Source: Desulfomonilia bacterium
GTDB taxonomy: Bacteria > Desulfobacterota > Desulfomonilia > UBA1062
Reading direction: 5' to 3'
Length of the DNA stretch: 64,000 nt
Assembly: GCA_963664325.2 (NCBI GenBank)
Contig: CAXXDQ010000003.1
Location: forward strand, 160,001-224,000
The translations under genes were made by a program, and so were the position numbers. The notes below the pieces were generated by a model, which made no database searches, was not told the DNA's origin, and worked only from the letters and a program-made list of their open reading frames with translations. Positions 13,895-23,777 of this stretch are shown here, one piece after another (position 1 is the first letter of the stretch; every line of letters starts with the position of its first letter).

Positions 13895-16423
13895 CTAGAA
13901 ATTTACCATTTTGTAAAAGACCCGTTTTGCCAGTTCCGCGCATAATATGTAGCTTATTACAATCATGAGCAGCATGACAAAGAATTGGACAGGCAGCACT
14001 TTGAATCCGAACAGCGCAGCAAGCTGCGTGAACGGCAGAATCAGCGCAAGCGCCGCGATAATGCCAGTGGCAACCGCCAGATAGCGTCCGGGTGGACTCT
14101 TGAAAAATGGTCTGCGGCTTCTTATCACGAGCACGATCAGGGCGGCCGATATTACAGATTCCATGAACCATCCTGTCTGGAACTGCTCGGGGCTGGCATG
14201 AAGTATCCACAGCAATGCGCCGAAGGTCAGATAATCAAAGACAGAACTCAACAAACCAAAGACGAGCATGAATTTTTTTATAAAGCCTATATTCCACCTT
14301 CTTGGAACTTCCAGCAGTTCGGCATCCACGCTGTCAGTGGCGATAGTCATTTCAGGAAAGTCGGTCATCAGATTTGTGAGAAGTATCTGCTTCGGCAGGA
14401 GAGGCAGAAACGGCAGGATCAGAGATGCTCCCGCCATGCTGAACATGTTTCCGAAATTGGCGCTGGTGGCCATGAAGACATACTTGAGCGTGTTTGCAAA
14501 AGTCCGGCGGCCCTCGATCACACCCTGAAGCAGCACCTTCAGGTCGTTTTCCAGAAGCACGATGTCCGAGGCCTCTTTCGCGACATCCACCGCACTGTCA
14601 ACCGAGATTCCCACATCAGCGGTGTGAAGGGCTGATGCATCATTGATCCCGTCACCCAGATATCCCACCACGCTGCCTGATTTTTTCAGGGCATGTATTA
14701 TCCTTTCCTTCTGGTTGGGCTCTATCTCGGCGAAGATGTCAATTGAGGGCGACATGCGTATCAGGGCCTCATCGCTCATGTCATGCATGTCCGAGCCCGT
14801 AAGAATCCTGGTTGCAGACAGGCCTGTCTGGATCCCGACACTTGCCGCCACGAGTCTGTTATCGCCCGTGATTATCTTAAGCGCTACTCCCAGCTTTTCG
14901 AGTTCCTTGACAGTATCGCCGACGCCTTCCTTGGGCGGATCATCAAAGACGATAAATCCCATAAATGTCATATCTTTTTCATCAGCCTTGCTGATCGACC
15001 GAGCACTGGAGAATTCTTTAACGGCAATTCCGAGTGTGCGCAGTCCCTGGGCGCTGTATTCGGCAAAGCGTCGGTCTATTTCAGGCCTTAAGCTTGAGAT
15101 ATCCATTATATCTCCGCTGTCGCCTTCCGCGTTCGAACAGGCATCGATGACGTTTGCAAAAGCGCCCTTGGTTATCATGGTGTAAGTGGATTTATCACCT
15201 ACGAGGATGCTGAGCCGTTTGCGCAGGAAATCATATGGTATCTCGTCCAGCTTATTCTCTTTGAGGATGTCGATGCCTTTTATATCCTTGATCGCCTGGT
15301 CAATCGGGTTGTTGAACCCGGTCTCAAAGGCTGCGTTCAGGTAGGCAAGTCTCTTCACCTTTTCGCTTGCGCCTCCGTGAATGTCAAAGGCGCCCTCGAG
15401 CCTTACCCTGCCCCGGGTGAGCGTGCCTGTTTTGTCTGAGCACAGGATGTTCATGCTGCCGAAGTTTTCTATGGAATTCAGCTTCTTTACAATCACTTTC
15501 AGTCCGGCCATGCGCCTTGCGCCATGGGAAAGATTGATGCTTATTATGGCCGGCAGCAGCTGCGGCGTCAGGCCTACGGCCAGTGCCATCGAGAAGAGCA
15601 ATGATTCCAGTACCGGGCGCTTGAGGAAGACGTTGACCGCAAAGATTGCTATGACTAGGATAAGCGTCACCTCCATGAGCAGGTATCCGAAACGCCTCAC
15701 CCCCCGTTCGAATTCGGTTTCTTCGGGCCTGAGTTTCAGACGGTCTGAAATCTTTCCGAATTCGGTGCGTACTCCGGTGTTTACCACAAGGGCTTTCGCC
15801 CAACCGCTGACGGTATTCGTCCCCATCCATAAGGCATTCAAGCGCCCGGCAAACGGGGCTTCGGCATCAGTAACCCCATGCACTTTTTCAACAGGATAGG
15901 TTTCCCCGGTCAAAGAAGCCTCATTGACATAAAGATCCCTTGATTCGATTATCAGGCAATCACCGGGGATGATGTCCCCCGCCCTTAACAGGATGACATC
16001 GCCGGGGACTATCTGCTCGAGGGGTATTTCGGATTCGGCGCCATCCCTTATAACGTCGGCCTTTACCTGGACCATGGACAGAAGCTTTTTTACTGCATTT
16101 GCAGCCCCTTTTTCCTGCCAGAATCCCAGCAGGCCGCTTATGATAACGATTACCAATATGATGACGCTGTCTGTCGAATCATGGAGGATTGATGATATTG
16201 CTGCGGCAAAAAGCAATATCAGGATAATGGGGCTTTTAAACTGTGAGACAAGTAGTGTTACCGCGCTATCCGACCTTGCAGGTTTGAGCAGGTTGGGTCC
16301 CTCCGTATTAAGGCGGGAAGATGCTTCCTGGCCTGTGAGGCCGTTTTCGGATGATCCGGCAAGGATTATTGCCTGTTCTGCGGGGATACTCCAGTATGGC
16401 TTGTCTTTAATGCCTTCGAGCAT
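13895..16423 (-). CDS. mgtA: Magnesium-translocating P-type ATPase
   Basis: LTGET, AVGLTPQLLP, CSDKTGTLT, GDGIND and SANFGNMFS (MgtA-type) motifs. Confidence 0.92.
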   Translation of the reverse strand: MLEGIKDKPYWSIPAEQAIILAGSSENGLTGQEASSRLNTEGPNLLKPARSDSAVTLLVSQFKSPIILILLFAAAISSILHDSTDSVIILVIVIISGLLGFWQEKGAANAVKKLLSMVQVKADVIRDGAESEIPLEQIVPGDVILLRAGDIIPGDCLIIESRDLYVNEASLTGETYPVEKVHGVTDAEAPFAGRLNALWMGTNTVSGWAKALVVNTGVRTEFGKISDRLKLRPEETEFERGVRRFGYLLMEVTLILVIAIFAVNVFLKRPVLESLLFSMALAVGLTPQLLPAIISINLSHGARRMAGLKVIVKKLNSIENFGSMNILCSDKTGTLTRGRVRLEGAFDIHGGASEKVKRLAYLNAAFETGFNNPIDQAIKDIKGIDILKENKLDEIPYDFLRKRLSILVGDKSTYTMITKGAFANVIDACSNAEGDSGDIMDISSLRPEIDRRFAEYSAQGLRTLGIAVKEFSSARSISKADEKDMTFMGFIVFDDPPKEGVGDTVKELEKLGVALKIITGDNRLVAASVGIQTGLSATRILTGSDMHDMSDEALIRMSPSIDIFAEIEPNQKERIIHALKKSGSVVGYLGDGINDASALHTADVGISVDSAVDVAKEASDIVLLENDLKVLLQGVIEGRRTFANTLKYVFMATSANFGNMFSMAGASLILPFLPLLPKQILLTNLMTDFPEMTIATDSVDAELLEVPRRWNIGFIKKFMLVFGLLSSVFDYLTFGALLWILHASPEQFQTGWFMESVISAALIVLVIRSRRPFFKSPPGRYLAVATGIIAALALILPFTQLAALFGFKVLPVQFFVMLLMIVISYILCAELAKRVFYKMVNF

Positions 16424-16522: not shown

Positions 16523-16561
16523 ATCAGGCATTACCTGATTCCGGGCATAAAAATATTTTAA
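16523..16561 (-). promoter_or_regulatory. Island operator copy 4 (upstream of mgtA)
   Basis: Perfect palindrome AATCAGG-CATTA-CCTGATT at 16522-16540; distal element degenerate. Confidence 0.75.
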
Positions 16562-16899
16562 ATATTTTTCCTGTGATAATGGATTATGTCATCAACTCCG
16601 TTCACATCATAATGGGTGAATTTGATTCCAATGCCTTTTTCGTTTGTGCGAACCACATGTCCGTGCACCCATGCGATCTTGCCGTATTGCTCAATATTCA
16701 GATCGGCCTGGATATGTTCTCCCGCATTATGTTTGAATTGTGATTCCAGGAACATTCCGCCGAAGCTGATGTCCCGCACTAACCCCGGATGATCATTTTC
16801 AGATCCGCTTCTGTAGCGTGCGGGAACGTTGACTTTATTCCTTTCGAATTCCCGCTTTTCCGTTAAATTCCCACTGTCGTCGTCTCCTTTGCGTTTCAT
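16558..16899 (-). CDS. Single-domain PilZ protein
   Basis: RxxxR (REFER) and DxSxGG (DISFGG) c-di-GMP-binding motifs. Confidence 0.88.
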   Translation of the reverse strand: MKRKGDDDSGNLTEKREFERNKVNVPARYRSGSENDHPGLVRDISFGGMFLESQFKHNAGEHIQADLNIEQYGKIAWVHGHVVRTNEKGIGIKFTHYDVNGVDDIIHYHRKNI

Positions 16900-16925: not shown

Positions 16926-17522
16926 CTATTCTGACCTGTTCTTCGTACTTCTCCTGATCACGGTACCTGTTGATAGCAGCCCAAGGCCCAAAAGAAGGAG
17001 CGTGGAAGGTTCTGGAACCGGAGCAGGTTCAGGGACCGGGTCCTGGCAGGAGTTATAGTTGAGTCTAAAGGAGGAACGGTCCAGGTAGAAATCTCCTCCG
17101 AGCGAAGCCAGCGTTACGAACAGAGAGCCGTTATTGAATATGACATTGCAGCTGTAAACCCCGGGTTCGACATCCCCGGTCGCATATAGCCCGGAACCGG
17201 GAAAATCGAGAGAAATTTCAGGACTGTCAAACCTCTGGTTGCCGGCATCATGAAAGCTCAGTGATAAAGTCCCGTTAACGTAAGCCGGACCGGCCTGCGG
17301 ATCGAAGCTTAGAGCATGAGACCATCGTAAATAATCTCCAAAGCCGTCAAGACCGTTAACAGATCCATAGCCATAAGATAATAAAGTTCCCATGCCCTGG
17401 CCTGTTGATATTGCATCACTGCTTGAAAATGTAAGTGCATTCGAATAGGTTATGGGTGCGGAGAATGAGGCGGAAGCAAGTATTAAAACCAGTAAAACCG
17501 CCAGTATTAATTTCAGTTTCAT
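16926..17522 (-). CDS. PEP-CTERM sorting-domain surface protein
   Basis: Signal peptide from ATG 17522; C-terminal PVPEPAPVPEPSTLLLLGLGLL...RR. Confidence 0.9.
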   Translation of the reverse strand: MKLKLILAVLLVLILASASFSAPITYSNALTFSSSDAISTGQGMGTLLSYGYGSVNGLDGFGDYLRWSHALSFDPQAGPAYVNGTLSLSFHDAGNQRFDSPEISLDFPGSGLYATGDVEPGVYSCNVIFNNGSLFVTLASLGGDFYLDRSSFRLNYNSCQDPVPEPAPVPEPSTLLLLGLGLLSTGTVIRRSTKNRSE

Positions 17523-17615
17523 GTTATCCCCCTTTACTTTTCTTTGAAGATATCTAATCAGTGACATAAACCCCTTTTATAGCCAGCATAATCAATTTTT
17601 TCCCGGTTTTTCACA

Positions 17616-17675: not shown

Positions 17676-17771
17676 TTAGAACTGCACCCAATGCCCGAGG
17701 AAGAAGAAGAATATTATTGCTATGACATGAAGAACCCACCAGTTGGGGGTCAGCCATTTAAATCTGTTCAT
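17676..17771 (-). CDS. 31-aa membrane peptide MNRFKWLTPNWWVLHVIAIIFFFFLGHWVQF (not in ORF track)
   Basis: ATGA overlap with the upstream stop, GGAGG 5 nt before the ATG, one hydrophobic helix, and similarity to the C-terminus of the upstream protein. Confidence 0.75.
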   Translation of the reverse strand: MNRFKWLTPNWWVLHVIAIIFFFFLGHWVQF

Positions 17772-18271
17772 AATTGCCTCCAGAGCAGATGGCCAAGGGT
17801 ATAAACAGCGCTTATTGCCGCCAGGTGCACAAGCCACCAGCCAATGTTGGGATAACGGTATGTAACGCCTTTTTTCTCCTTGTCCACGGCGTATCCGAAT
17901 GTTTCCAGGTCGAAGAGGGCCTTGCCTATAAAGAAGTTGGTCCAGAGGATCAGATTGTCGGAAAGCAGCGTCTGAACAATTACTGTCGCGAAAGTCGCAG
18001 GCTGCGGCCAGTTTGCAATTGAAAAATGGGTCATCAGGACCGTGCCGATGATGGTCAGCATTCCGTTTAACACATAGCCGTACTGGACCGTTTTCTTTGC
18101 TGAAAAAAGCACGGGGACCACAACGACGCTCAGTATGCCGATAATCAGAGGGATTATGTTAGCGGTATTATTTGATATGGAATGAATTCTCAGGTGCAGC
18201 AGGAATCCCCCCAGGGAAATACTTACAAGTGCGGCGAGCAGGGTCGATTTTGTATAAGTCCTCAGGGTCAT
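17768..18271 (-). CDS. Multi-TM membrane protein with intramembrane His residues, function unknown
   Basis: About 4-5 hydrophobic segments; AAGGAGG RBS; 15 nt downstream of iscU. Confidence 0.8.
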   Translation of the reverse strand: MTLRTYTKSTLLAALVSISLGGFLLHLRIHSISNNTANIIPLIIGILSVVVVPVLFSAKKTVQYGYVLNGMLTIIGTVLMTHFSIANWPQPATFATVIVQTLLSDNLILWTNFFIGKALFDLETFGYAVDKEKKGVTYRYPNIGWWLVHLAAISAVYTLGHLLWRQL

Positions 18272-18286
18272 TTACGCCTCCTTTCA

Positions 18287-18922
18287 TTACTCCGTGAACT
18301 TCACCTCTACGGATTTCACGTCCCAAAGAGGTTCAATCTTATCCATTATTTCCTGAGTGATATTGGCTGCAAACTGGTGATTTGCAGGAAGGTCGATGGT
18401 TACCAGCACCACCCCGTCTTTAATGCTGATGTCATTCACAAGATTCGTTCTCACAAGGTCCAGACCGGACAGGGGATTCATGACTTTTTTCAGGCGCTTT
18501 TTAACCGTCTCTACTGTTGTTGGAACCTTTTCACTAATCTTGCCGTTCAGCTCTTCATAATTCTGAATAGCCGAACGCAGTCCTTCAACGGCCAGAACAG
18601 AACAATGCGCCTTTATCGGCGGCAGCCCGCCCAGGGCATCGGCAGCCTGTTCCCATGTGATCTTTTTGGCCTCTTCAATGGTTTTACCTTTGGCGAGGTC
18701 GGTGATAATGGAGCCAGTAGCGATATTCGAGGCGCAGCCGTATGATTCGAATTTGACATCCTCGATGCGCTTACCGGTCTTGTCAACCTTTATGCTGACC
18801 GAAACCATGTCGCCGCAGGCGGGGCTGCCCTCTATGGCCTTTCCGTCAGGGTTTTCTATCTGCCCCACGTTGTGCGGGTGTTTGAAATGCTCAAGTACTT
18901 TTTCATTATACGGGAACTTCAT
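18287..18922 (-). CDS. iscU: IscU/NifU-N Fe-S scaffold fused to a C-terminal DUF59-like domain
   Basis: PACGD, YGC and LPPIKAHC motifs (three Cys plus Asp); the C-terminal ~70 aa (VMNPLSGLDLV...V-V-I) resemble DUF59. Confidence 0.88.
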   Translation of the reverse strand: MKFPYNEKVLEHFKHPHNVGQIENPDGKAIEGSPACGDMVSVSIKVDKTGKRIEDVKFESYGCASNIATGSIITDLAKGKTIEEAKKITWEQAADALGGLPPIKAHCSVLAVEGLRSAIQNYEELNGKISEKVPTTVETVKKRLKKVMNPLSGLDLVRTNLVNDISIKDGVVLVTIDLPANHQFAANITQEIMDKIEPLWDVKSVEVKFTE

Positions 18923-20097
18923 TTTCTAACCTCCTGACGGGGTTCCTTTCCCAGGGGACTGATCTTGCGCAAATCGCTTACGACTTCAGCAAGGACATCT
19001 GCCAGCCTGTCCACTTCCTGTTTCGTATTAAACCTGCCGAATGTAAAACGTATGGAGCCGTGCGCCTGCTCATGATCCCCGCCGATACCCATGATGACAT
19101 GGCTGGCCTCAAGTGAGCGGCTGAAGCAGGCGGAGCCGGTGCTTACAGCGAACCCGTGCATGTCAAGATGCAGGGTGACGGATTCGCCTTCCACATAGTG
19201 AAGTGTAATATTGGCGTTTTGGGGAAGCCTTTTAACTTTATGTCCATTAAGGCTCACGTCAGGGATTTCGGCCAGCACACGGTTGATTAGATGATCGCGG
19301 AGCTTTATGAAGCCTGCGTTTTCTTCCGGCTTGACAAGCTCCACAGCCTTGGCGAATCCGACAGCCCCGGGAATGTCCTCGAGCCCGGCCCTCAGGTTGA
19401 ATTCCTGGAAACCGCCGTCCATCCACTTTGAAAGAGGAGTTCCCTTCCTGATGTATAATCCCCCGACACCCTTTGGTCCGTGGATTGTATGGGCGGAAAC
19501 CGTTATCATATCCGCAGGAGAGTCGCGCACATCCAGATTAACGCGGGTGAAAGTGTGGGTCGCGTCCGTATGAAAGAGCACATGCTTCTGCCTGCATAAC
19601 CTTGCGATCGCCTCGATATCCTGAATGGTCCCTATTTCCTGGTTTGCGTGCTGTATGGTGACCAGGATTGTCTTGTCGGTGATGGCCTGGGAGAGCTCGT
19701 TGAGGTCGATAAGCCCGTCTTTACCTGCGCCGAGGTAGGTCGCCTTAAACCCCTGTTTCTCGAGCGCCTTCACACTGTTGAGAACAGGGAAATCTTCTAT
19801 CTTCGTTGTGATTATATGGCTCCCTTTCTTTGATTCCGGTCCCGACGCAATCCCCTTGATCGCCATATTGCTTGATTCTGTGGAACCTGACGTAAAGATG
19901 AATTCATCCGCAGCAGCGCCCAGAACACCGGCAATTGATTTTCGCGCTGCTTCCAGGGCCTCCTTGGCTTCTATGCCAAGCGAATACCCAAACTCGGAAG
20001 TGGCGACGGAATATACGTCAAAAAAGTATGGGGTCATGGCCTCGAGCACACGCTCATCAAGCCTTGTGGCTGCCGAGTTATCAAAATAGGATGACAT
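18919..20097 (-). CDS. IscS-like cysteine desulfurase homologue lacking the PLP Schiff-base lysine
   Basis: FTSGSTES, EIG, GPKG, VEGES, STGSAC and SIRF motifs; the canonical SxHK reads SAHT. Confidence 0.9.
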   Translation of the reverse strand: MSSYFDNSAATRLDERVLEAMTPYFFDVYSVATSEFGYSLGIEAKEALEAARKSIAGVLGAAADEFIFTSGSTESSNMAIKGIASGPESKKGSHIITTKIEDFPVLNSVKALEKQGFKATYLGAGKDGLIDLNELSQAITDKTILVTIQHANQEIGTIQDIEAIARLCRQKHVLFHTDATHTFTRVNLDVRDSPADMITVSAHTIHGPKGVGGLYIRKGTPLSKWMDGGFQEFNLRAGLEDIPGAVGFAKAVELVKPEENAGFIKLRDHLINRVLAEIPDVSLNGHKVKRLPQNANITLHYVEGESVTLHLDMHGFAVSTGSACFSRSLEASHVIMGIGGDHEQAHGSIRFTFGRFNTKQEVDRLADVLAEVVSDLRKISPLGKEPRQEVRK

Positions 20098-20118
20098 GTT
20101 TTCTTCCTTGATAAATGA

Positions 20119-20538
20119 TCAGATGAAAAGGTTGATGGCCGAGTTCCGGGCCTCATCGATATAGGTTCCGACAGCGCCGTATTCATCGATGATACCCTTG
20201 ATCAGGCTTTCCTTCTTTATCCCCATGATATCCATGGTCATCTGGCATGCTATGATCCTGCCCCCCAGTTCCTTGAAATCATCAAGAAGGCGCCTGAGAG
20301 AGGCCATGTTTACCGCCTTCATGCGGCGTTTGATAAGCCATCTGCCAAGCCCGCCGAAATTCATTTTTGAAAGCGGGCCCTTCTCAAGGCCTTTATCAAC
20401 AAGCCTCTCAAGGCCCCAGAATGTAAAATAGATTGTAGCTTCCATTCCCATGGCCAAAGCGCCGTTTGCAATAATAAGCGCGCTGTAAAATTTATCCATA
20501 TCGCCGCTGTGCAGGATGATTGTTGTTTTTTCCGTCAT
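20119..20538 (-). CDS. DsrE/DsrF/DrsH-like (DsrE2-type) sulfur carrier
   Basis: ATG 20538 after GGAGG; YFTFWGL, IACQMTMDIMG and terminal LFI motifs. Confidence 0.9.
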   Translation of the reverse strand: MTEKTTIILHSGDMDKFYSALIIANGALAMGMEATIYFTFWGLERLVDKGLEKGPLSKMNFGGLGRWLIKRRMKAVNMASLRRLLDDFKELGGRIIACQMTMDIMGIKKESLIKGIIDEYGAVGTYIDEARNSAINLFI

Positions 20539-20551
20539 GACACTGCCTCCA

Positions 20552-20773
20552 TCACCTGCGGATCCTGATCTTCCAGACGCCGCCGTCTTCCTCGACATCT
20601 AAAAGCTCCAGACCCAGGGCCTTAACCGCCATCGGTATCTCTTTTTTCGATGCCGGGTGTGTTCCGACAGCCTCTATAATATCTCCCGGAGAGGCCTTGC
20701 GCAGCGCTTTGCGTACCTCGACAAGCGGTACTGGACAGGTCTCGCCCTGTACGTCAACTTTAATTTCCGCCAT
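20552..20773 (-). CDS. tusA: TusA/SirA-family sulfur carrier
   Basis: VDVQGETCPVP (CPxP) motif, 73 aa. Confidence 0.9.
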   Translation of the reverse strand: MAEIKVDVQGETCPVPLVEVRKALRKASPGDIIEAVGTHPASKKEIPMAVKALGLELLDVEEDGGVWKIRIRR

Positions 20774-20833
20774 GCTACACCTCACTTTCTCGGGGCTATA
20801 CTGCTATGGATCACTGTTCAGGCAGTATTGCGG

Positions 20834-21301
20834 TTAGTTTATCTGTTCAGCCAGATAGTTCTCTTTACCGACCTGCTCTATCTGCCCCAGTTCCATTTCT
20901 ATGACATCTATGTGGCCCTCTTCGTCTTTGAGTATCGACGCAAACAACTCCCTGCTCCCGTTGTCGCCGACTTCCATGGCGAGTTTTATTGCCTCGTTGT
21001 ATCCCTTCAGGGCGACAATCTCGGATGCCAGGTCGTTGTTGTGCTGGGACTCAACGCCGGCGCCGATATTGATCTTATTCAAATGACTTAAAATCGGCGT
21101 GCCTTCCAGGAATAGGATCCTCTCTATAAGCCTTTCCGCATGCTTCATCTCATCAATGGCACGCTGCCGGTTGATTTTATGGAGTTTTTCATAGCCCCAG
21201 TTGTCGCACATCTCGGCATGAACCATGTACTGGCTGATGGCGGTTAGTTCATCGGCAAGCAGGCTGTTCAGTTTATCGATGATCTTGTCATTTCCCTTCA
21301 T
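20834..21301 (-). CDS. bfr: Bacterioferritin
   Basis: MKG...DELTAISQY...DEMKHA...ERILFLEG...DEEGH; heme-ligand Met present; GGAGG RBS before ATG 21301. Confidence 0.95.
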   Translation of the reverse strand: MKGNDKIIDKLNSLLADELTAISQYMVHAEMCDNWGYEKLHKINRQRAIDEMKHAERLIERILFLEGTPILSHLNKINIGAGVESQHNNDLASEIVALKGYNEAIKLAMEVGDNGSRELFASILKDEEGHIDVIEMELGQIEQVGKENYLAEQIN

Positions 21302-21413
21302 TTCATCCTCCCTGGAATTGATTTTTTGAATACTCTCATGCTGTATCTTGGTGTTAAAACCGTGCAACAGCGTTCCTTTTTAATCCGGATAGGGGAACTG
21401 ACAATAATTCACA

Positions 21414-21452
21414 ATCAGGGATTCCCTTACTTTTGGCTTCTAAAATTCTGAC
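21414..21452 (-). promoter_or_regulatory. Island operator copy 6 (upstream of bfr-tusA-dsrE-iscS-iscU operon)
   Basis: Minus strand: GTCAGAATTTTAGAAGCCAAAA-GTAAGG-GAATC-CCTGAT-TG. Confidence 0.78.
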
Positions 21453-21473
21453 AGCAAATTATTCCTTTACAGC

Positions 21474-21506
21474 TTGACATTTTATTGATGCCCTGTATGC
21501 TATAAA
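21474..21506 (+). promoter_or_regulatory. Probable sigma70 promoter of the two-component operon
   Basis: TTGACA-16 nt-TATGCT, plus an overlapping extended -10 TGcTATAAA. Confidence 0.5.
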
Positions 21507-21556
21507 AACTGTGTTTGTATATCAAATCGGTTCGATTAAAACTTAAACGGCGACAG

Positions 21557-22652
21557 ATGAAGACAATTTTAGAAAATAAATCTATCCCCTGTTTAGATAT
21601 TCCTGAAGACGTTTTAAAACTTTTATCCGTTGTGGATGAAGTTATCTGGATTATGTCAAGCAGTGGAAAAGAATTATATTATGTGAATCCAGCCTTTGAA
21701 CGCCTGTATGGAAAAGAAGTTTCCGGGTTCTATGACAATCCTGATCTCTGGCTTCTTTCCGTTCATCCGGATGACAGGCGTATTGCCGAAGAAAGCATTG
21801 AAGAGCTTCTGTCGTTTCGATATTCAAAGGCGGAATACCGCATCATAAGGCCCGACGGAACCGACAGATGGATCCTTGACAAGAAGCATATCATAAAAAA
21901 AAGGAGAAGATTGCGTGCCTCTGATAGGCTGTATCCTACGCGACATCACAGAGCAGAAGATGGCGAACGACAAGCTTAAGGAACTTCATGAGGACTTGCG
22001 TTCCCAGACATTCAATATGAGCCTGGCCGGGGAGAAGGAGAGAAGGCGGATTGCGACGGAACTTCATGACAATGTGAGCCAGAACCTGGCTTACTGTAAA
22101 ATAAAACTCAAAGAGATCGAAAAAGACGGCAATTATTCCGGGTTGGCCGGTGAACTGAACGAGATCAATATATTGCTGACTGAGGCCATAAAAAATATCA
22201 GGTCACAGACATTCGAGCTCAGCCCCCCCCTTCTTTATGACCTCGGGCTGGAACCGGCAATCGATTGGCTTGGAGAGAATATAATTGCAAAAAGGGGAAT
22301 GAATTTCCGGCTGGACAGTGATGAATATCAAAAACCGATAAGCAATGAATTGAGAGTGCTTTTATTCCAGATCGTTCGGGAACTTCTGAACAATATCGCC
22401 AAACATTCCCAGGCCAGGGAAGTCATGGTATTTATCAGGTATGCAACGGACACTGTCATGATAAGCGTTCAGGATAACGGCATAGGTTTTGAAGAGTCTG
22501 AAATGTCAACAGGGCATCAGCAAAGTCATGGTTATGTAAGCATCAGGGAGCGGCTGAATCATATAGGCGGATTTTTCAGCATTAAATCCAAACAGGGTGC
22601 GGGAACAAAGGTAAACATCGTTGTTCCCATTAATGAGAGGGGAATGATATGA
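21557..22652 (+). pseudogene. Cytoplasmic PAS + HisKA_3 sensor kinase split by a +1 frameshift in an A8 run
   Basis: Removing one A at 21895-21902 joins the PAS half (VHPDDR...YRIIRPDG) through KKGEDCVPLIGCILRDITE to ERRRIATELHD...QDNGIGF. Confidence 0.85.
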
Positions 22653-23296
22653 AGACAAAAATCTTGCTGGCGGATGACCATAAAATAATGAGGGAAGGAC
22701 TCAAGACGATTCTGGAAAAACAGCCGGAATTTGAAGTGACTGGAGAGGCTTCAAACGGTATTGAAGCCATTGATGCGGCAATTGAGAAAAACCCGGATGT
22801 GATTATTATGGATATCAACATGCCCGATTTGAACGGCATTGAAGCGACCTTGAGAATCAAGCATGAAAAGCCTTCGATAAAGATTCTGGCCCTGTCAATG
22901 CATGACGACAGAAAATTTCTAATAAACATGCTGAAGGCAGGGGCTTCAGGCTATCTTCTGAAGGATTGCGCGTCGGATGAATTGATTGACGCCATTAGGG
23001 TTATCAGGAAAAACCGTTTGTTCATAAGCCCTGACCTTGTTGATGACATGGTAAGAGACTTTGTAATGTCGGCCCAGATTTCCGACCTGTCGGTGTTTTC
23101 AATACTCACCAAACGGGAACGCGATGTTCTGCAGAGAATCTCGGAGGGAAGGTCAACAAAAGAAATTGCATTTGATCTCAACGTTAGCGTCAAGACCGTG
23201 GAGACATTCCGTTACAAGATCGAAGACAAAACAGGTCTGCACAGCATTGCGGAACTGACAAAATATGCAATCCGCGAAGGGATTACAACCTTGTAA
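22649..23296 (+). CDS. NarL/FixJ-family response regulator (REC + LuxR HTH)
   Basis: LADDH, MDINMP, GYLLK and LTKRE...STKEIA...SVKTVET motifs. Confidence 0.95.
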   Translation: MKTKILLADDHKIMREGLKTILEKQPEFEVTGEASNGIEAIDAAIEKNPDVIIMDINMPDLNGIEATLRIKHEKPSIKILALSMHDDRKFLINMLKAGASGYLLKDCASDELIDAIRVIRKNRLFISPDLVDDMVRDFVMSAQISDLSVFSILTKRERDVLQRISEGRSTKEIAFDLNVSVKTVETFRYKIEDKTGLHSIAELTKYAIREGITTL

Positions 23297-23315: not shown

Positions 23316-23777
23316 CTATTTGACCATCAGGACCTGCGAAGTTGCATTTCTTAAAACCCTCTCGGCCACGCCTCCCATCATGTGCTTGATAAAACCCGTC
23401 TTTCCGTGGGATCCGATGATTATGAGGTCAATGTCTTTATTCTGTTGTTCTTTAATTATTTCTTCATAAGGGTTTCCCTTTTTTATGTCATATTCGATTT
23501 CTACGGCATGGTCCTGAGAAAAATTTCTCACTTCATTCTTCATCAGCTCCCTTGAATTGATGACGCTGTCGGTATTGTATTTTTCCATCATTTCAACCGG
23601 GATGCAGTAATCGACTGCGCACTGCTGGACCGTATTATCGATGACATGAAGCAGATAGACCTTTGAATTGTATTTTTCCGCAATATCAGAGGCAACACTT
23701 AAGGCGATATCTGAATGTTTAGAGAAATCCGTCGGCACGAGAATCTTCTTTGGTTTAAACATACTCTTCTCCTTCAT
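23316..23777 (-). CDS. Universal stress protein
   Basis: ILVPTDFS, LLHV and DLIIIGSHG...GGVAERV motifs. Confidence 0.93.
   Translation of the reverse strand: MKEKSMFKPKKILVPTDFSKHSDIALSVASDIAEKYNSKVYLLHVIDNTVQQCAVDYCIPVEMMEKYNTDSVINSRELMKNEVRNFSQDHAVEIEYDIKKGNPYEEIIKEQQNKDIDLIIIGSHGKTGFIKHMMGGVAERVLRNATSQVLMVK

Follow-up and report, generated by a model that had tools for sequence, protein, structure and literature searches.

How does a protein of the cysteine desulfurase family take part in the assembly of iron-sulfur (Fe-S) clusters once it has lost the lysine on which the chemistry of its class depends? This question is raised by a short gene cluster in the genome of a Desulfomonilia bacterium (GenBank assembly GCA_963664325.2), found in the stretch of DNA analyzed here, 64,000 nucleotides of contig CAXXDQ010000003.1 (positions 160,001 to 224,000) that we call the window and whose internal numbering is used throughout. 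In enzymes of this class the lysine forms an aldimine with pyridoxal 5'-phosphate (PLP) and serves both as the anchor of the cofactor and as the catalytic base. At 18287-20773 of the window, on the minus strand, an IscS homolog without this lysine, here called IscS*, is encoded in a four-gene unit, tusA-dsrE2-iscS*-iscU/DUF59, together with two sulfur-carrier families and a cluster scaffold. This unit recurs as a conserved cassette across many phyla of bacteria and archaea, and comparison of its sequences suggests that it probably builds Fe-S clusters without cysteine desulfurase chemistry, with a sulfur relay from TusA/DsrE2 through IscS* to IscU as the best, if tentative, reading. Its parts, with families assigned by Pfam and NCBIfam scans, are the following:

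20552..20773, minus strand: tusA, sulfur-carrier protein, 73 amino acids (aa) from the ATG at 20773 (PF01206, 76.7 bits; Cys-Pro-x-Pro site)
20119..20538, minus strand: dsrE2, soluble DsrE2-type protein, 139 aa from the ATG at 20538 (PF13686, 129.9 bits)
18919..20097, minus strand: iscS*, IscS/NifS-type protein without the PLP lysine, 392 aa (PF00266, 228.8 bits, residues 4-365)
19486..19488, minus strand: ACA codon of Thr204, at the site of the Schiff-base lysine (E. coli Lys206), in the context S-A-H-T-I-H-G-P
19126..19128, minus strand: codon of Cys324, the mobile-loop cysteine (E. coli Cys328); coordinate calculated from the start at 20097
18287..18922, minus strand: iscU (residues 1-127; PF01592, 140.8 bits) fused to a DUF59/FeS_assembly_P domain (residues 138-207; PF01883, 49.8 bits)

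The active site of IscS*

The PF00266 match places IscS* within the class-V aminotransferase fold, and its nearest solved structure is the IscS of Archaeoglobus fulgidus (4eb5, E 3.4e-101), but it scores below every NCBIfam cysteine desulfurase equivalog (TIGR03402, 431.2 bits versus a cut-off of 530.75; TIGR02006, 368.4 versus 643.2; NF010611, 376.9 versus 548). We aligned it with IscS of E. coli K-12 (NC_000913), with 3 paralogs from the same genome (2 of the IscS/NifS type and 1 class-V aminotransferase), and with 2 second-copy IscS proteins from related loci. Lys206 of the E. coli enzyme is replaced by Thr204, His104-Lys-Ala reads Asp-Phe-Pro (Asp102 and Phe103 in IscS*), Asn155 has become Gln153, Gln183 has become His181, Thr243 has become Leu, and the G-N-P-x-S loop has given way to a remodeled loop that is 2 residues longer. 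In all, the lysine and 4 other PLP contacts are lost, and the full combination of changes occurs in IscS* alone within this alignment. Of the features that define a type I desulfurase, IscS* thus lacks both the Schiff-base lysine (Thr204) and the ring-stacking histidine (Asp102), and keeps the catalytic cysteine of the mobile loop, as Cys324. Also retained are Arg354 (Arg350 in IscS*), Asp180, Thr76, and His205. An earlier note on this DNA had listed the residue changes and read ACA at 19486-19488 as threonine; every one of those changes matches the alignment with the real E. coli sequence, and the codon is indeed that of Thr204.

These substitutions define a clade. Among the 120 best database homologs (70-92% identity), threonine stands at the lysine position in 119, and His104 to Asp, Lys105 to Phe, Asn155 to Gln, and Thr329 to Phe are found in all 120. 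Thr243 is Leu, Ile, or Met in 119, Gln183 is His in about 118, and Gly234 is Phe in 118 and Tyr in the other 2. Conservation extends equally to what has been kept, since the counterparts of Cys328 and Arg354, along with Thr76, are present in 120/120, and those of Asp180 and His205 are invariant or nearly so in a 72-row alignment (the window protein plus an arbitrary pick of 71 out of 121 proteins). The sequence S-T-G-S-A-C-F-S-R-S-L-E around Cys324 is almost invariant, with Ser319 present in 109/120. Set against 123 Lys-bearing relatives, several further pocket residues are specific to the clade and invariant or nearly so, namely Asn35 to Val, Gly234 to Phe, Arg237 to Phe, and the Phe and Arg that flank the loop cysteine.

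Conservation of at least 90% was seen at 238 of the 392 positions; this count, like the FastTree phylogeny below, drew on the 139 out of 150 representatives that are 340-460 aa long. On clustering at 50% identity the clade is reduced to a single full-length representative at 573 bits, and the next match drops to 426 bits. Over 324 pairs with dS of 0.1-1.5, from 81 sequences, the Nei-Gojobori dN/dS ratio never exceeds 0.24, and its median is 0.088. The earlier note had asked whether the SAHT, EDFPV, and RAGL motifs mark a conserved clade under purifying selection, and both parts of that expectation are borne out.

The partner proteins

The three proteins encoded beside IscS* look functional as judged by their conserved sites. 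In TusA, Cys13, Pro14, and Pro16 of the family's Cys-Pro-x-Pro site are invariant in 74/74 cassette rows. The single conserved cysteine of DsrE2, Cys98, is invariant in 59/59 rows (the window protein plus 58 of 72 matches, after removal of 8 that overlap tusA, one with a stop, and 5 more), and the solved structures closest to this protein are 3pnx and then the DsrE2B-type 2qs7. In IscU, Cys36, Asp38, Cys63, His106, and Cys107 are invariant in 73/73 rows and the DUF59 part is free of cysteine. This protein has the NifU_N domain with the 3 cysteines and the aspartate of an IscU scaffold, although it scores below the cut-offs of the NCBIfam equivalogs (for example 150.8 versus 187.9), and its best solved relative is the A. 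fulgidus IscU (E 2.4e-40). All four cassette proteins therefore carry invariant cysteines.

The surfaces through which TusA and IscS dock in E. coli can also be compared, as the salt bridges of that interface have been described (PMC2854127). Arg21 and Arg25 of the cassette TusA, at the positions of Arg27 and Arg31 in the E. coli protein, are kept without change in 74/74 rows. On the other partner, Glu46 of IscS* is found in 117/120 homologs versus 30/123 Lys-bearing relatives, an acidic residue at position 49 (Asp/Glu) in 117/120, and Arg52 in 120/120. Sequence comparison thus indicates that the docking salt bridges of the E. coli interface are conserved on both partners; the aromatic pair of that interface, Trp45-Phe58, has become Ile-Ala in the cassette. 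Structure prediction of the IscS*-TusA complex with two different alignments returned an ipSAE of 0.01 in both runs, and, made with a single IscS* chain, it gives no verdict either way. In the E. coli complex the loop cysteine comes from the second IscS subunit (PMC2854127).

Distribution and neighborhood of the cassette

A scan of one genome per species returned 497 relatives, and the best 80 loci, at 68-74% identity, were fetched. They span Chloroflexota (Dehalococcoidia and Anaerolineae), Syntrophales, Thermodesulfovibrionales/Nitrospiraceae, Atribacterota, Calditrichales, Methanofastidiosa, Altiarchaeales, Methanobacteriaceae, and Methanosarcinaceae (Methanomethylovorans), and the hosts, judged by their record titles, are anaerobes. 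By clustering of open reading frames (ORFs), tusA was found at 73/80 of these loci, dsrE2 at 74/80, and iscU-DUF59 at 74/80, in agreement with the earlier note's expectation of a shared neighborhood across the clade. The order tusA-dsrE2-iscS*-iscU/DUF59 is nearly universal, with an alternative order, iscS*-iscU/DUF59-tusA(-dsrE2), at 4 Anaerolineae/Anaerolineales loci.

We surveyed the immediate neighbors at loci with the canonical order, choosing, no more than 900 nucleotides (nt) from the cassette, the longest ORF with 90 aa or more. Neither the 52 upstream and 55 downstream neighbors obtained in this way nor the flanks of the sister loci described below revealed a conserved fifth gene. The commonest downstream neighbor is a heavy-metal P-type ATPase with HMA domains, at 8-9 of the 55 loci, mostly from Dehalococcoidia. 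The ATPase gene directly follows the cassette at loci L021, L027, L028, L038, L044, L052, L053, L069, and L071; in 4 of them YHS domains are present. In E. coli K-12, tusA likewise adjoins zntA. Copper and zinc attack Fe-S assembly, and the adjacency of ATPase and cassette is probably either coincidence or lineage synteny. Genes for rubrerythrin occur in the flanks of 8 of the 80 loci, other rubrerythrin-like genes in 6 and 4, superoxide dismutase (SOD) in 4, and desulfoferrodoxin in 4, and genes for nitroreductase and ferritin-like proteins also recur in a minority of flanks. Taken together these are a weak hint of a link between the cassette and oxidative or metal stress.

Among close relatives, the DsrE2 of the cassette was found in 0 of 3 genomes of the same genus (93-97% complete) and in 1 of 24 of the same family, a patchy distribution that fits horizontal transfer of the cassette. 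The same-genus genomes hold only scattered segments of the region at about 67-70% identity, on different contigs, so that no empty insertion site is demonstrable. Among archaea, of 41 genomes sampled from the family to which the Methanomethylovorans metagenome-assembled genome at L084 belongs (presumably Methanosarcinaceae), 18 carry the cassette, and all 11 loci examined in that family hold it, one of them only partly within the fetched stretch. In one 4.2-Mb genome of this family the order is HIT-TusA-DsrE2-IscS*-IscU/DUF59, followed by a 76-aa ORF. An in-frame TGA in 3 Methanosarcinaceae matches to IscS* was considered as possible selenocysteine and rejected, because in each case the reading had run past a natural stop codon.

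Repeated loss of the lysine in an IscU-DUF59-linked subfamily

Of the 150 nearest representatives of IscS*, 18 are without the lysine, and 3 of these 18 belong to the IscS* clade. A FastTree phylogeny (147 rows) places IscS* in a group with support of 96 that has 17 rows, 16 of them Lys-less. We traced the subfamily around IscS* through metagenome loci of its nearest sister, P0123. Its members share a signature consisting of Val31, Phe/Tyr230, Phe233, and Cys324-Phe-x-Arg327, and their genes adjoin one for IscU-DUF59, usually followed by tusA and sometimes by dsrE2. All 17 metagenome loci that carry this signature and retain the downstream side show IscU, plus DUF59 where the gene is uncut. 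The window IscS* belongs here, with the full signature and the adjacent IscU-DUF59. At loci with the canonical signature, in contrast, IscU is plain and no DUF59 was found, and only one of them shows a weak TusA match (29% identity).

The state of the active site varies widely within this subfamily. Members at L119, L122, and L159 keep Lys206, His104, Gln183, and Thr243, others keep the lysine and have lost Gln183, others again have Leu in place of the lysine with further losses, and the IscS* clade has Thr. In a quick IQ-TREE phylogeny of 67 rows, hand-picked to cover the groups, the subfamily forms 22 rows (Shimodaira-Hasegawa-like approximate likelihood-ratio test, SH-aLRT, 91) inside a clade with support of 98, and the lysine is present in 11 of these rows and absent from the other 11. 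Its losses map to 4 separate places in the tree, 2 of which are sister pairs with support of 99-100. This phylogeny indicates that the subfamily has lost the lysine at least 4 times. Because Lys-bearing members also have TusA/DsrE2 neighbors, the association with the carriers predates the loss of the lysine, and in the IscU-DUF59/carrier setting PLP catalysis has been dispensable repeatedly.

The Lys-less IscS of A. fulgidus is not part of this lineage. Proteins of that type, which have Asp or Ser at the lysine position and keep His104, form a clade of their own (P0147, P0188, and P0215; support of 97 in FastTree and 99 in IQ-TREE), apart from the 98-support clade that contains IscS*; P0147 was assigned to this type by the identical motif around its Asp. 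Another Lys-less IscS group, always accompanied by plain IscU, has Gln at the lysine position, Asp at His205, and Val at Arg354, and forms its own clade with support of 100 (loci L145, L147, L149, L151-L154, L156, L157, L165, L168, and L174).

Comparison with known systems

A Lys-less IscS that partners IscU is already known from A. fulgidus and has been noted in Methanosarcina acetivorans; the object of interest here is the mobile four-gene cassette together with its parent subfamily. The A. fulgidus IscS has Asp in place of the lysine, shows no desulfurase activity, and binds pyridoxamine 5'-phosphate (PMP), which a D199K variant still held (PMC8918507). Its loop cysteine ligates a [2Fe-2S] cluster on the D35A variant of IscU, and sulfide has been proposed as the source of sulfur (PMC8918507, PMC7585200). 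The resemblance to the cassette is clear, as IscS* also has the type I fold without the lysine and keeps the loop cysteine, and IscU is encoded beside it in both (A. fulgidus structures 4eb5, 4hvk, and 4r5f). The A. fulgidus protein differs, besides its Asp and bound PMP, in retaining His104 and Asn155 and in its separate position in the trees, and its IscU of 153 aa is without a DUF59 fusion whereas that of the cassette is fused.

In M. acetivorans, IscS1 (MA0808) is described as missing the lysine and PLP residues, with an S-T-G-S-A-C-F-S loop at 318-325, and IscU1 (MA0807) as a 24.2-kDa protein with a Cys, Asp, Cys, Cys, and LPPIK motif; IscS1 formed insoluble inclusion bodies and was left uncharacterized (PMC7585200). 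The loop is the same as that of IscS*, and the spacing of the IscU1 ligands equals that of the window protein plus 9. As the cassette is found in genomes of the family, and loop and ligand spacing match, IscS1/IscU1 very probably represent a cassette member. TusA and DsrE go unmentioned in that paper (PMC7585200), which was also the only literature we found on the locus tags MA0806-MA0810.

The same three families, IscS, TusA, and a DsrE-type protein, make up the IscS-TusA-TusBCD relay of E. coli, and the central TusA-Arg/IscS-Glu,Asp salt bridges are shared. In that relay, however, sulfur starts at a PLP-dependent IscS and flows outward to tRNA, while IscS* is without the lysine. The cassette also differs in having a single soluble DsrE2 rather than TusBCD, and in the Ile-Ala replacement at the interface. 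Another parallel is the MIS system (MisS-MisU), an adjacent IscS-like/IscU-like pair of anaerobes and archaea without chaperones or A-type carriers, although MisS, unlike IscS*, is described as a cysteine desulfurase (PMC13066941). The same 2026 review of Fe-S biogenesis calls MIS the least studied system and reports no known sulfurtransferase for SMS; in its available portion DsrE and the lysine are not mentioned, and TusA appears only as an acceptor of sulfur from E. coli IscS (PMC13066941). A further comparison is the DsrE3A-DsrE2B-TusA set of Metallosphaera cuprina, where a soluble DsrE2B with one conserved cysteine (Cys99 there, Cys98 here) is also encoded beside TusA, but that set is tied to sulfur oxidation via an Hdr-like complex and not to IscS/IscU (PMC4175335). 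We found no literature linking TusA/DsrE2 to an IscS/IscU cassette in a search that left subscription journals and supplements mostly outside (including Figures S1/S2 of PMC7585200 and the MIS/SMS survey data).

A sulfur relay through IscS* and its alternatives

The reading we prefer, while holding it to be only about as probable as its competitors combined, is a relay of sulfur from TusA/DsrE2 to IscS* and on to IscU. IscS* would then descend from a cysteine desulfurase and, though no longer capable of PLP catalysis, would retain the fold, the partnership with IscU, and the cysteine of the mobile loop. It would be the hub at which the carriers dock, via the retained TusA surface, and the final thiol in a relay from cysteine to cysteine. 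DsrE2 Cys98 and/or TusA Cys13 would bring sulfane sulfur to IscS* Cys324, from which it would pass to IscU (Cys36, Cys63, and Cys107). Cys324 may in addition be a cluster ligand, the fourth, as in A. fulgidus, and the DUF59 domain may help to pass the finished cluster on. We infer in this scheme the Fe-S cluster as product, the direction of sulfur from carriers to IscS*, the origin of that sulfur, and the lack of a bound cofactor.

The strongest argument for the relay is comparative. Since intact cysteines of TusA and DsrE2 persist in a clade whose IscS has no lysine, it is hard to square them with IscS* catalysis as the carriers' sole source of sulfur. The relay would also account for the 4 losses of the lysine, because a second sulfur input would make cysteine desulfuration redundant. 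Four concordant genomes of Methanofastidiosa suggest that no type I desulfurase is needed for the cassette to work. In 4 of 5 such genomes (1.6-1.8 Mb, incomplete assemblies) IscS* is the sole strong Aminotran_5 match, at 238-248 bits, and the matches that follow are partial (112-120 bits), while in the fifth a canonical enzyme is present. A broader proposal, to which we give less credence than to the relay itself, is that the cassette is a self-contained, horizontally mobile, PLP-free Fe-S machine in which sulfane sulfur or sulfide is caught by DsrE2/TusA, handed to the loop cysteine of IscS*, and built into clusters on IscU-DUF59, giving a donor route for anaerobes without a desulfurase, apparently including Methanofastidiosa.

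Several observations weigh against these proposals. The source genome, 4.3 Mb in 9 contigs, also encodes a canonical Rrf2-IscS-IscU-NadA set and one SufB, and because of these the cassette is here accessory and not needed for bulk Fe-S supply. The cysteine-independent route proposed in the earlier note is plausible in the light of Methanofastidiosa, but in this organism it would not be the only one. At 3 closely related Anaerolineae loci (L011, L013, and L025) iscS* stands alone, with no tusA, dsrE2, or iscU within flanks of 2.7-5 kb; here the partner genes have perhaps been lost, or they are encoded in another part of the genome. No carrier-loading gene, such as one for a rhodanese or a sulfide oxidase, is conserved among the 52 upstream and 55 downstream neighbors or in the sister-locus flanks. 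The window DsrE2 passes PF13686 but reaches only 69.3 bits on NCBIfam NF047629, versus a cut-off of 210. The DsrE2B of M. cuprina, the only soluble DsrE2B tested in vitro, reacted with none of 6 sulfur compounds and took no thiosulfonate from DsrE3A or TusA (PMC4175335), and IscS1/IscU1 were not consistently detected in M. acetivorans proteomes (PMC7585200). Finally, relatives that keep the lysine, His104, and Thr243 (L119 and L159) have the same iscU-DUF59-tusA-dsrE2 neighbors. Because Lys-bearing relatives share these neighbors, the carriers may have begun as acceptors of sulfur from IscS, by analogy with TusA/TusBCD in E. coli, and the direction of flow proposed above is pure inference.

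This last point leads to the main alternative, which we consider unlikely though the most serious of those weighed, that the cassette is a scaffold resembling that of A. fulgidus. IscS* would hold IscU and lend Cys324 while free sulfide enters directly, and TusA/DsrE2 would not be donors but would remove sulfur for thiolation of tRNA or cofactors, or else tune or protect the complex. The precedent is good, as the A. fulgidus protein combines the lack of desulfurase activity with a cysteine ligand and a proposed supply from sulfide (PMC8918507, PMC7585200), and the hosts of the cassette are, by their record titles, anaerobic. The shared carriers of Lys-bearing relatives fit an acceptor role like that in the E. 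coli path from IscS through TusA to TusBCD, and the unreactive M. cuprina DsrE2B (PMC4175335) and the absence of a conserved loading enzyme beside the cassette point the same way. On this account, however, carriers that depend on IscS for sulfur should decay once it has no lysine. They are nevertheless present at 73-74 of 80 loci, with invariant cysteines (74/74 and 59/59). In addition, the A. fulgidus-type IscS is a separate clade that keeps His104.

It is distinctly less probable that the cassette is not mainly a builder of Fe-S clusters, and instead traffics or detoxifies reactive sulfur or thiophilic metals such as copper, or serves a thiolation pathway that uses IscU as donor of an Fe-S cofactor. 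The heavy-metal P-type ATPase with HMA domains immediately downstream at 8-9 of 55 loci would suit such a role, as would the rubrerythrin, SOD, desulfoferrodoxin, nitroreductase, and ferritin-like genes that recur in the flanks, and the bacterioferritin gene (bfr) that adjoins the cassette upstream in the window. The loci with the ATPase, however, come mostly from Dehalococcoidia and count as related instances, not independent ones, a conserved fifth gene is lacking, and the cluster ligands of IscU are kept in 73/73 rows of a protein fused to an Fe-S assembly domain.

Improbable to a somewhat greater degree is that IscS* is still an enzyme, which would hold PLP, PMP, or another ligand non-covalently in its remodeled pocket and act on cysteine or another sulfur substrate. 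The lysine is the anchor and catalytic base of the enzyme class, and with it have gone His104, which stacks on the ring, and Thr243, which contacts the phosphate. A bound cofactor is nevertheless possible, given that Asp180, Thr76, His205, and Arg354 have conserved counterparts and that the A. fulgidus IscS holds PMP without the lysine (PMC8918507). His346 is moreover present in 120/120 homologs, and the new pocket residues Asp102, Phe103, Gln153, His181, Phe230, Phe233, Phe325, and Arg327 are invariant or nearly so, and the site looks redesigned rather than decayed. Against this, the A. fulgidus D199K variant still held PMP (PMC8918507). What stands behind the earlier note's term "PLP-less" is the loss of the covalent anchor and of several contacts; for the cofactor itself the term overreaches.

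That an ordinary iscS was misread in sequencing or has decayed in this strain, as the single base separating ACA (Thr) from AAA (Lys) might suggest, is ruled out by the occurrence of the same residues in 119-120 of 120 homologs from many phyla, the dN/dS of 0.088, and the intact frame, and by a conserved clade with a shared neighborhood under purifying selection. The earlier note had already argued against a read error from the clustering of the changes.

The local operon and its genome

In the window the cassette is embedded in a longer operon, in which 7 closely spaced minus-strand ORFs fill 17676-21301 and ATGA overlaps join iscS* to iscU and the membrane protein gene to a 31-aa ORF. The additional features are these:

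20834..21301, minus strand: bfr, bacterioferritin, 155 aa (TIGR00754, 166.7 bits, above the cut-off of 125.55; PF00210 also matches)
20795..20831, strand not applicable: 10-nt inverted repeat between bfr and tusA, arms 90% complementary and 17 nt apart
17768..18271, minus strand: membrane protein, 167 aa, a local addition, without a match in Pfam or NCBIfam
17676..17771, minus strand: putative gene for a 31-aa hydrophobic peptide, its ATG overlapping the stop of the membrane protein gene

The co-oriented series from bfr to the 31-aa ORF described in the earlier note is confirmed by the ORFs and the family scans. Its extent, 17676-21301, is right for the local operon; the conserved unit is limited to 18287-20773. 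By its TIGR00754 score bfr is a bacterioferritin equivalog, and a GGAGG precedes its ATG at 21301. The inverted repeat that follows it has no T-run behind it. The idea that Bfr (as a source of iron), the membrane protein, and the peptide belong to the system does not hold up among related loci, where bfr-like neighbors amount to weak ferritin-like matches at 27-28% identity in 2/80 and the membrane protein is found in 0/80. All three are local additions outside the conserved cassette. Induction through a stress operator, also proposed in the earlier note, likewise finds no support, as no operator-like inverted repeat of at least 8 nt was found upstream of bfr (21290-21560). Promoter-like matches (9 versus 5.0 +/- 2.4 expected) are not informative.

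The membrane protein has 511 homologs of 165-167 aa, the few named ones coming from Thermodesulfobacteriota and Syntrophobacteria, and its helices hold several His residues that look conserved. By eye, the 31-aa ORF resembles the C-terminal helix of this protein, with a shared pattern of Trp-Trp-x-Leu-His and, further on, Leu-Gly-His. The same strand carries, further downstream, genes for a PEP-CTERM protein (16926-17567) and a protein with a PilZ domain (16558-16899), followed by one for a P-type cation ATPase of 842 aa that has no HMA domains (13895-16423). Divergent from bfr, and judged by sequence appearance, are an ORF with a PAS domain and one for a putative sensor histidine kinase (21515-22652), an ORF for a putative LuxR-type response regulator (22649-23296), and, on the opposite strand, an ORF resembling a universal stress protein (23316-23777).

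The source genome has further paralogs of IscS. One locus, a second cluster related to sulfur (L001, G000:C3:939351-943454), holds a gene like that of the D-component of 2-hydroxyglutaryl-CoA dehydratase, a Lys-bearing class-V aminotransferase, and beside it a 199-aa protein with an N-terminal TusA domain. At another (L002, G000:C7:515422-519501), a 501-aa IscS-like protein with a C-terminal extension of about 110 residues, which has no family match, adjoins a PhoU_div (DUF47) gene.

Implications

If the relay through IscS* is true, the cassette bears on how sulfur reaches Fe-S clusters in those strict anaerobes and methanogens in which a cysteine desulfurase is lacking or cysteine goes unused. 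It offers a concrete, widespread, and strongly conserved candidate, consisting of four proteins each with one invariant thiol site. Its occurrence in the genetically tractable Methanosarcina group makes it accessible, and the Lys-bearing relatives are natural controls. A catalytic site that has been abandoned repeatedly under strong selection would also make this family a clear example of how an enzyme can become a partner protein without catalysis of its own.

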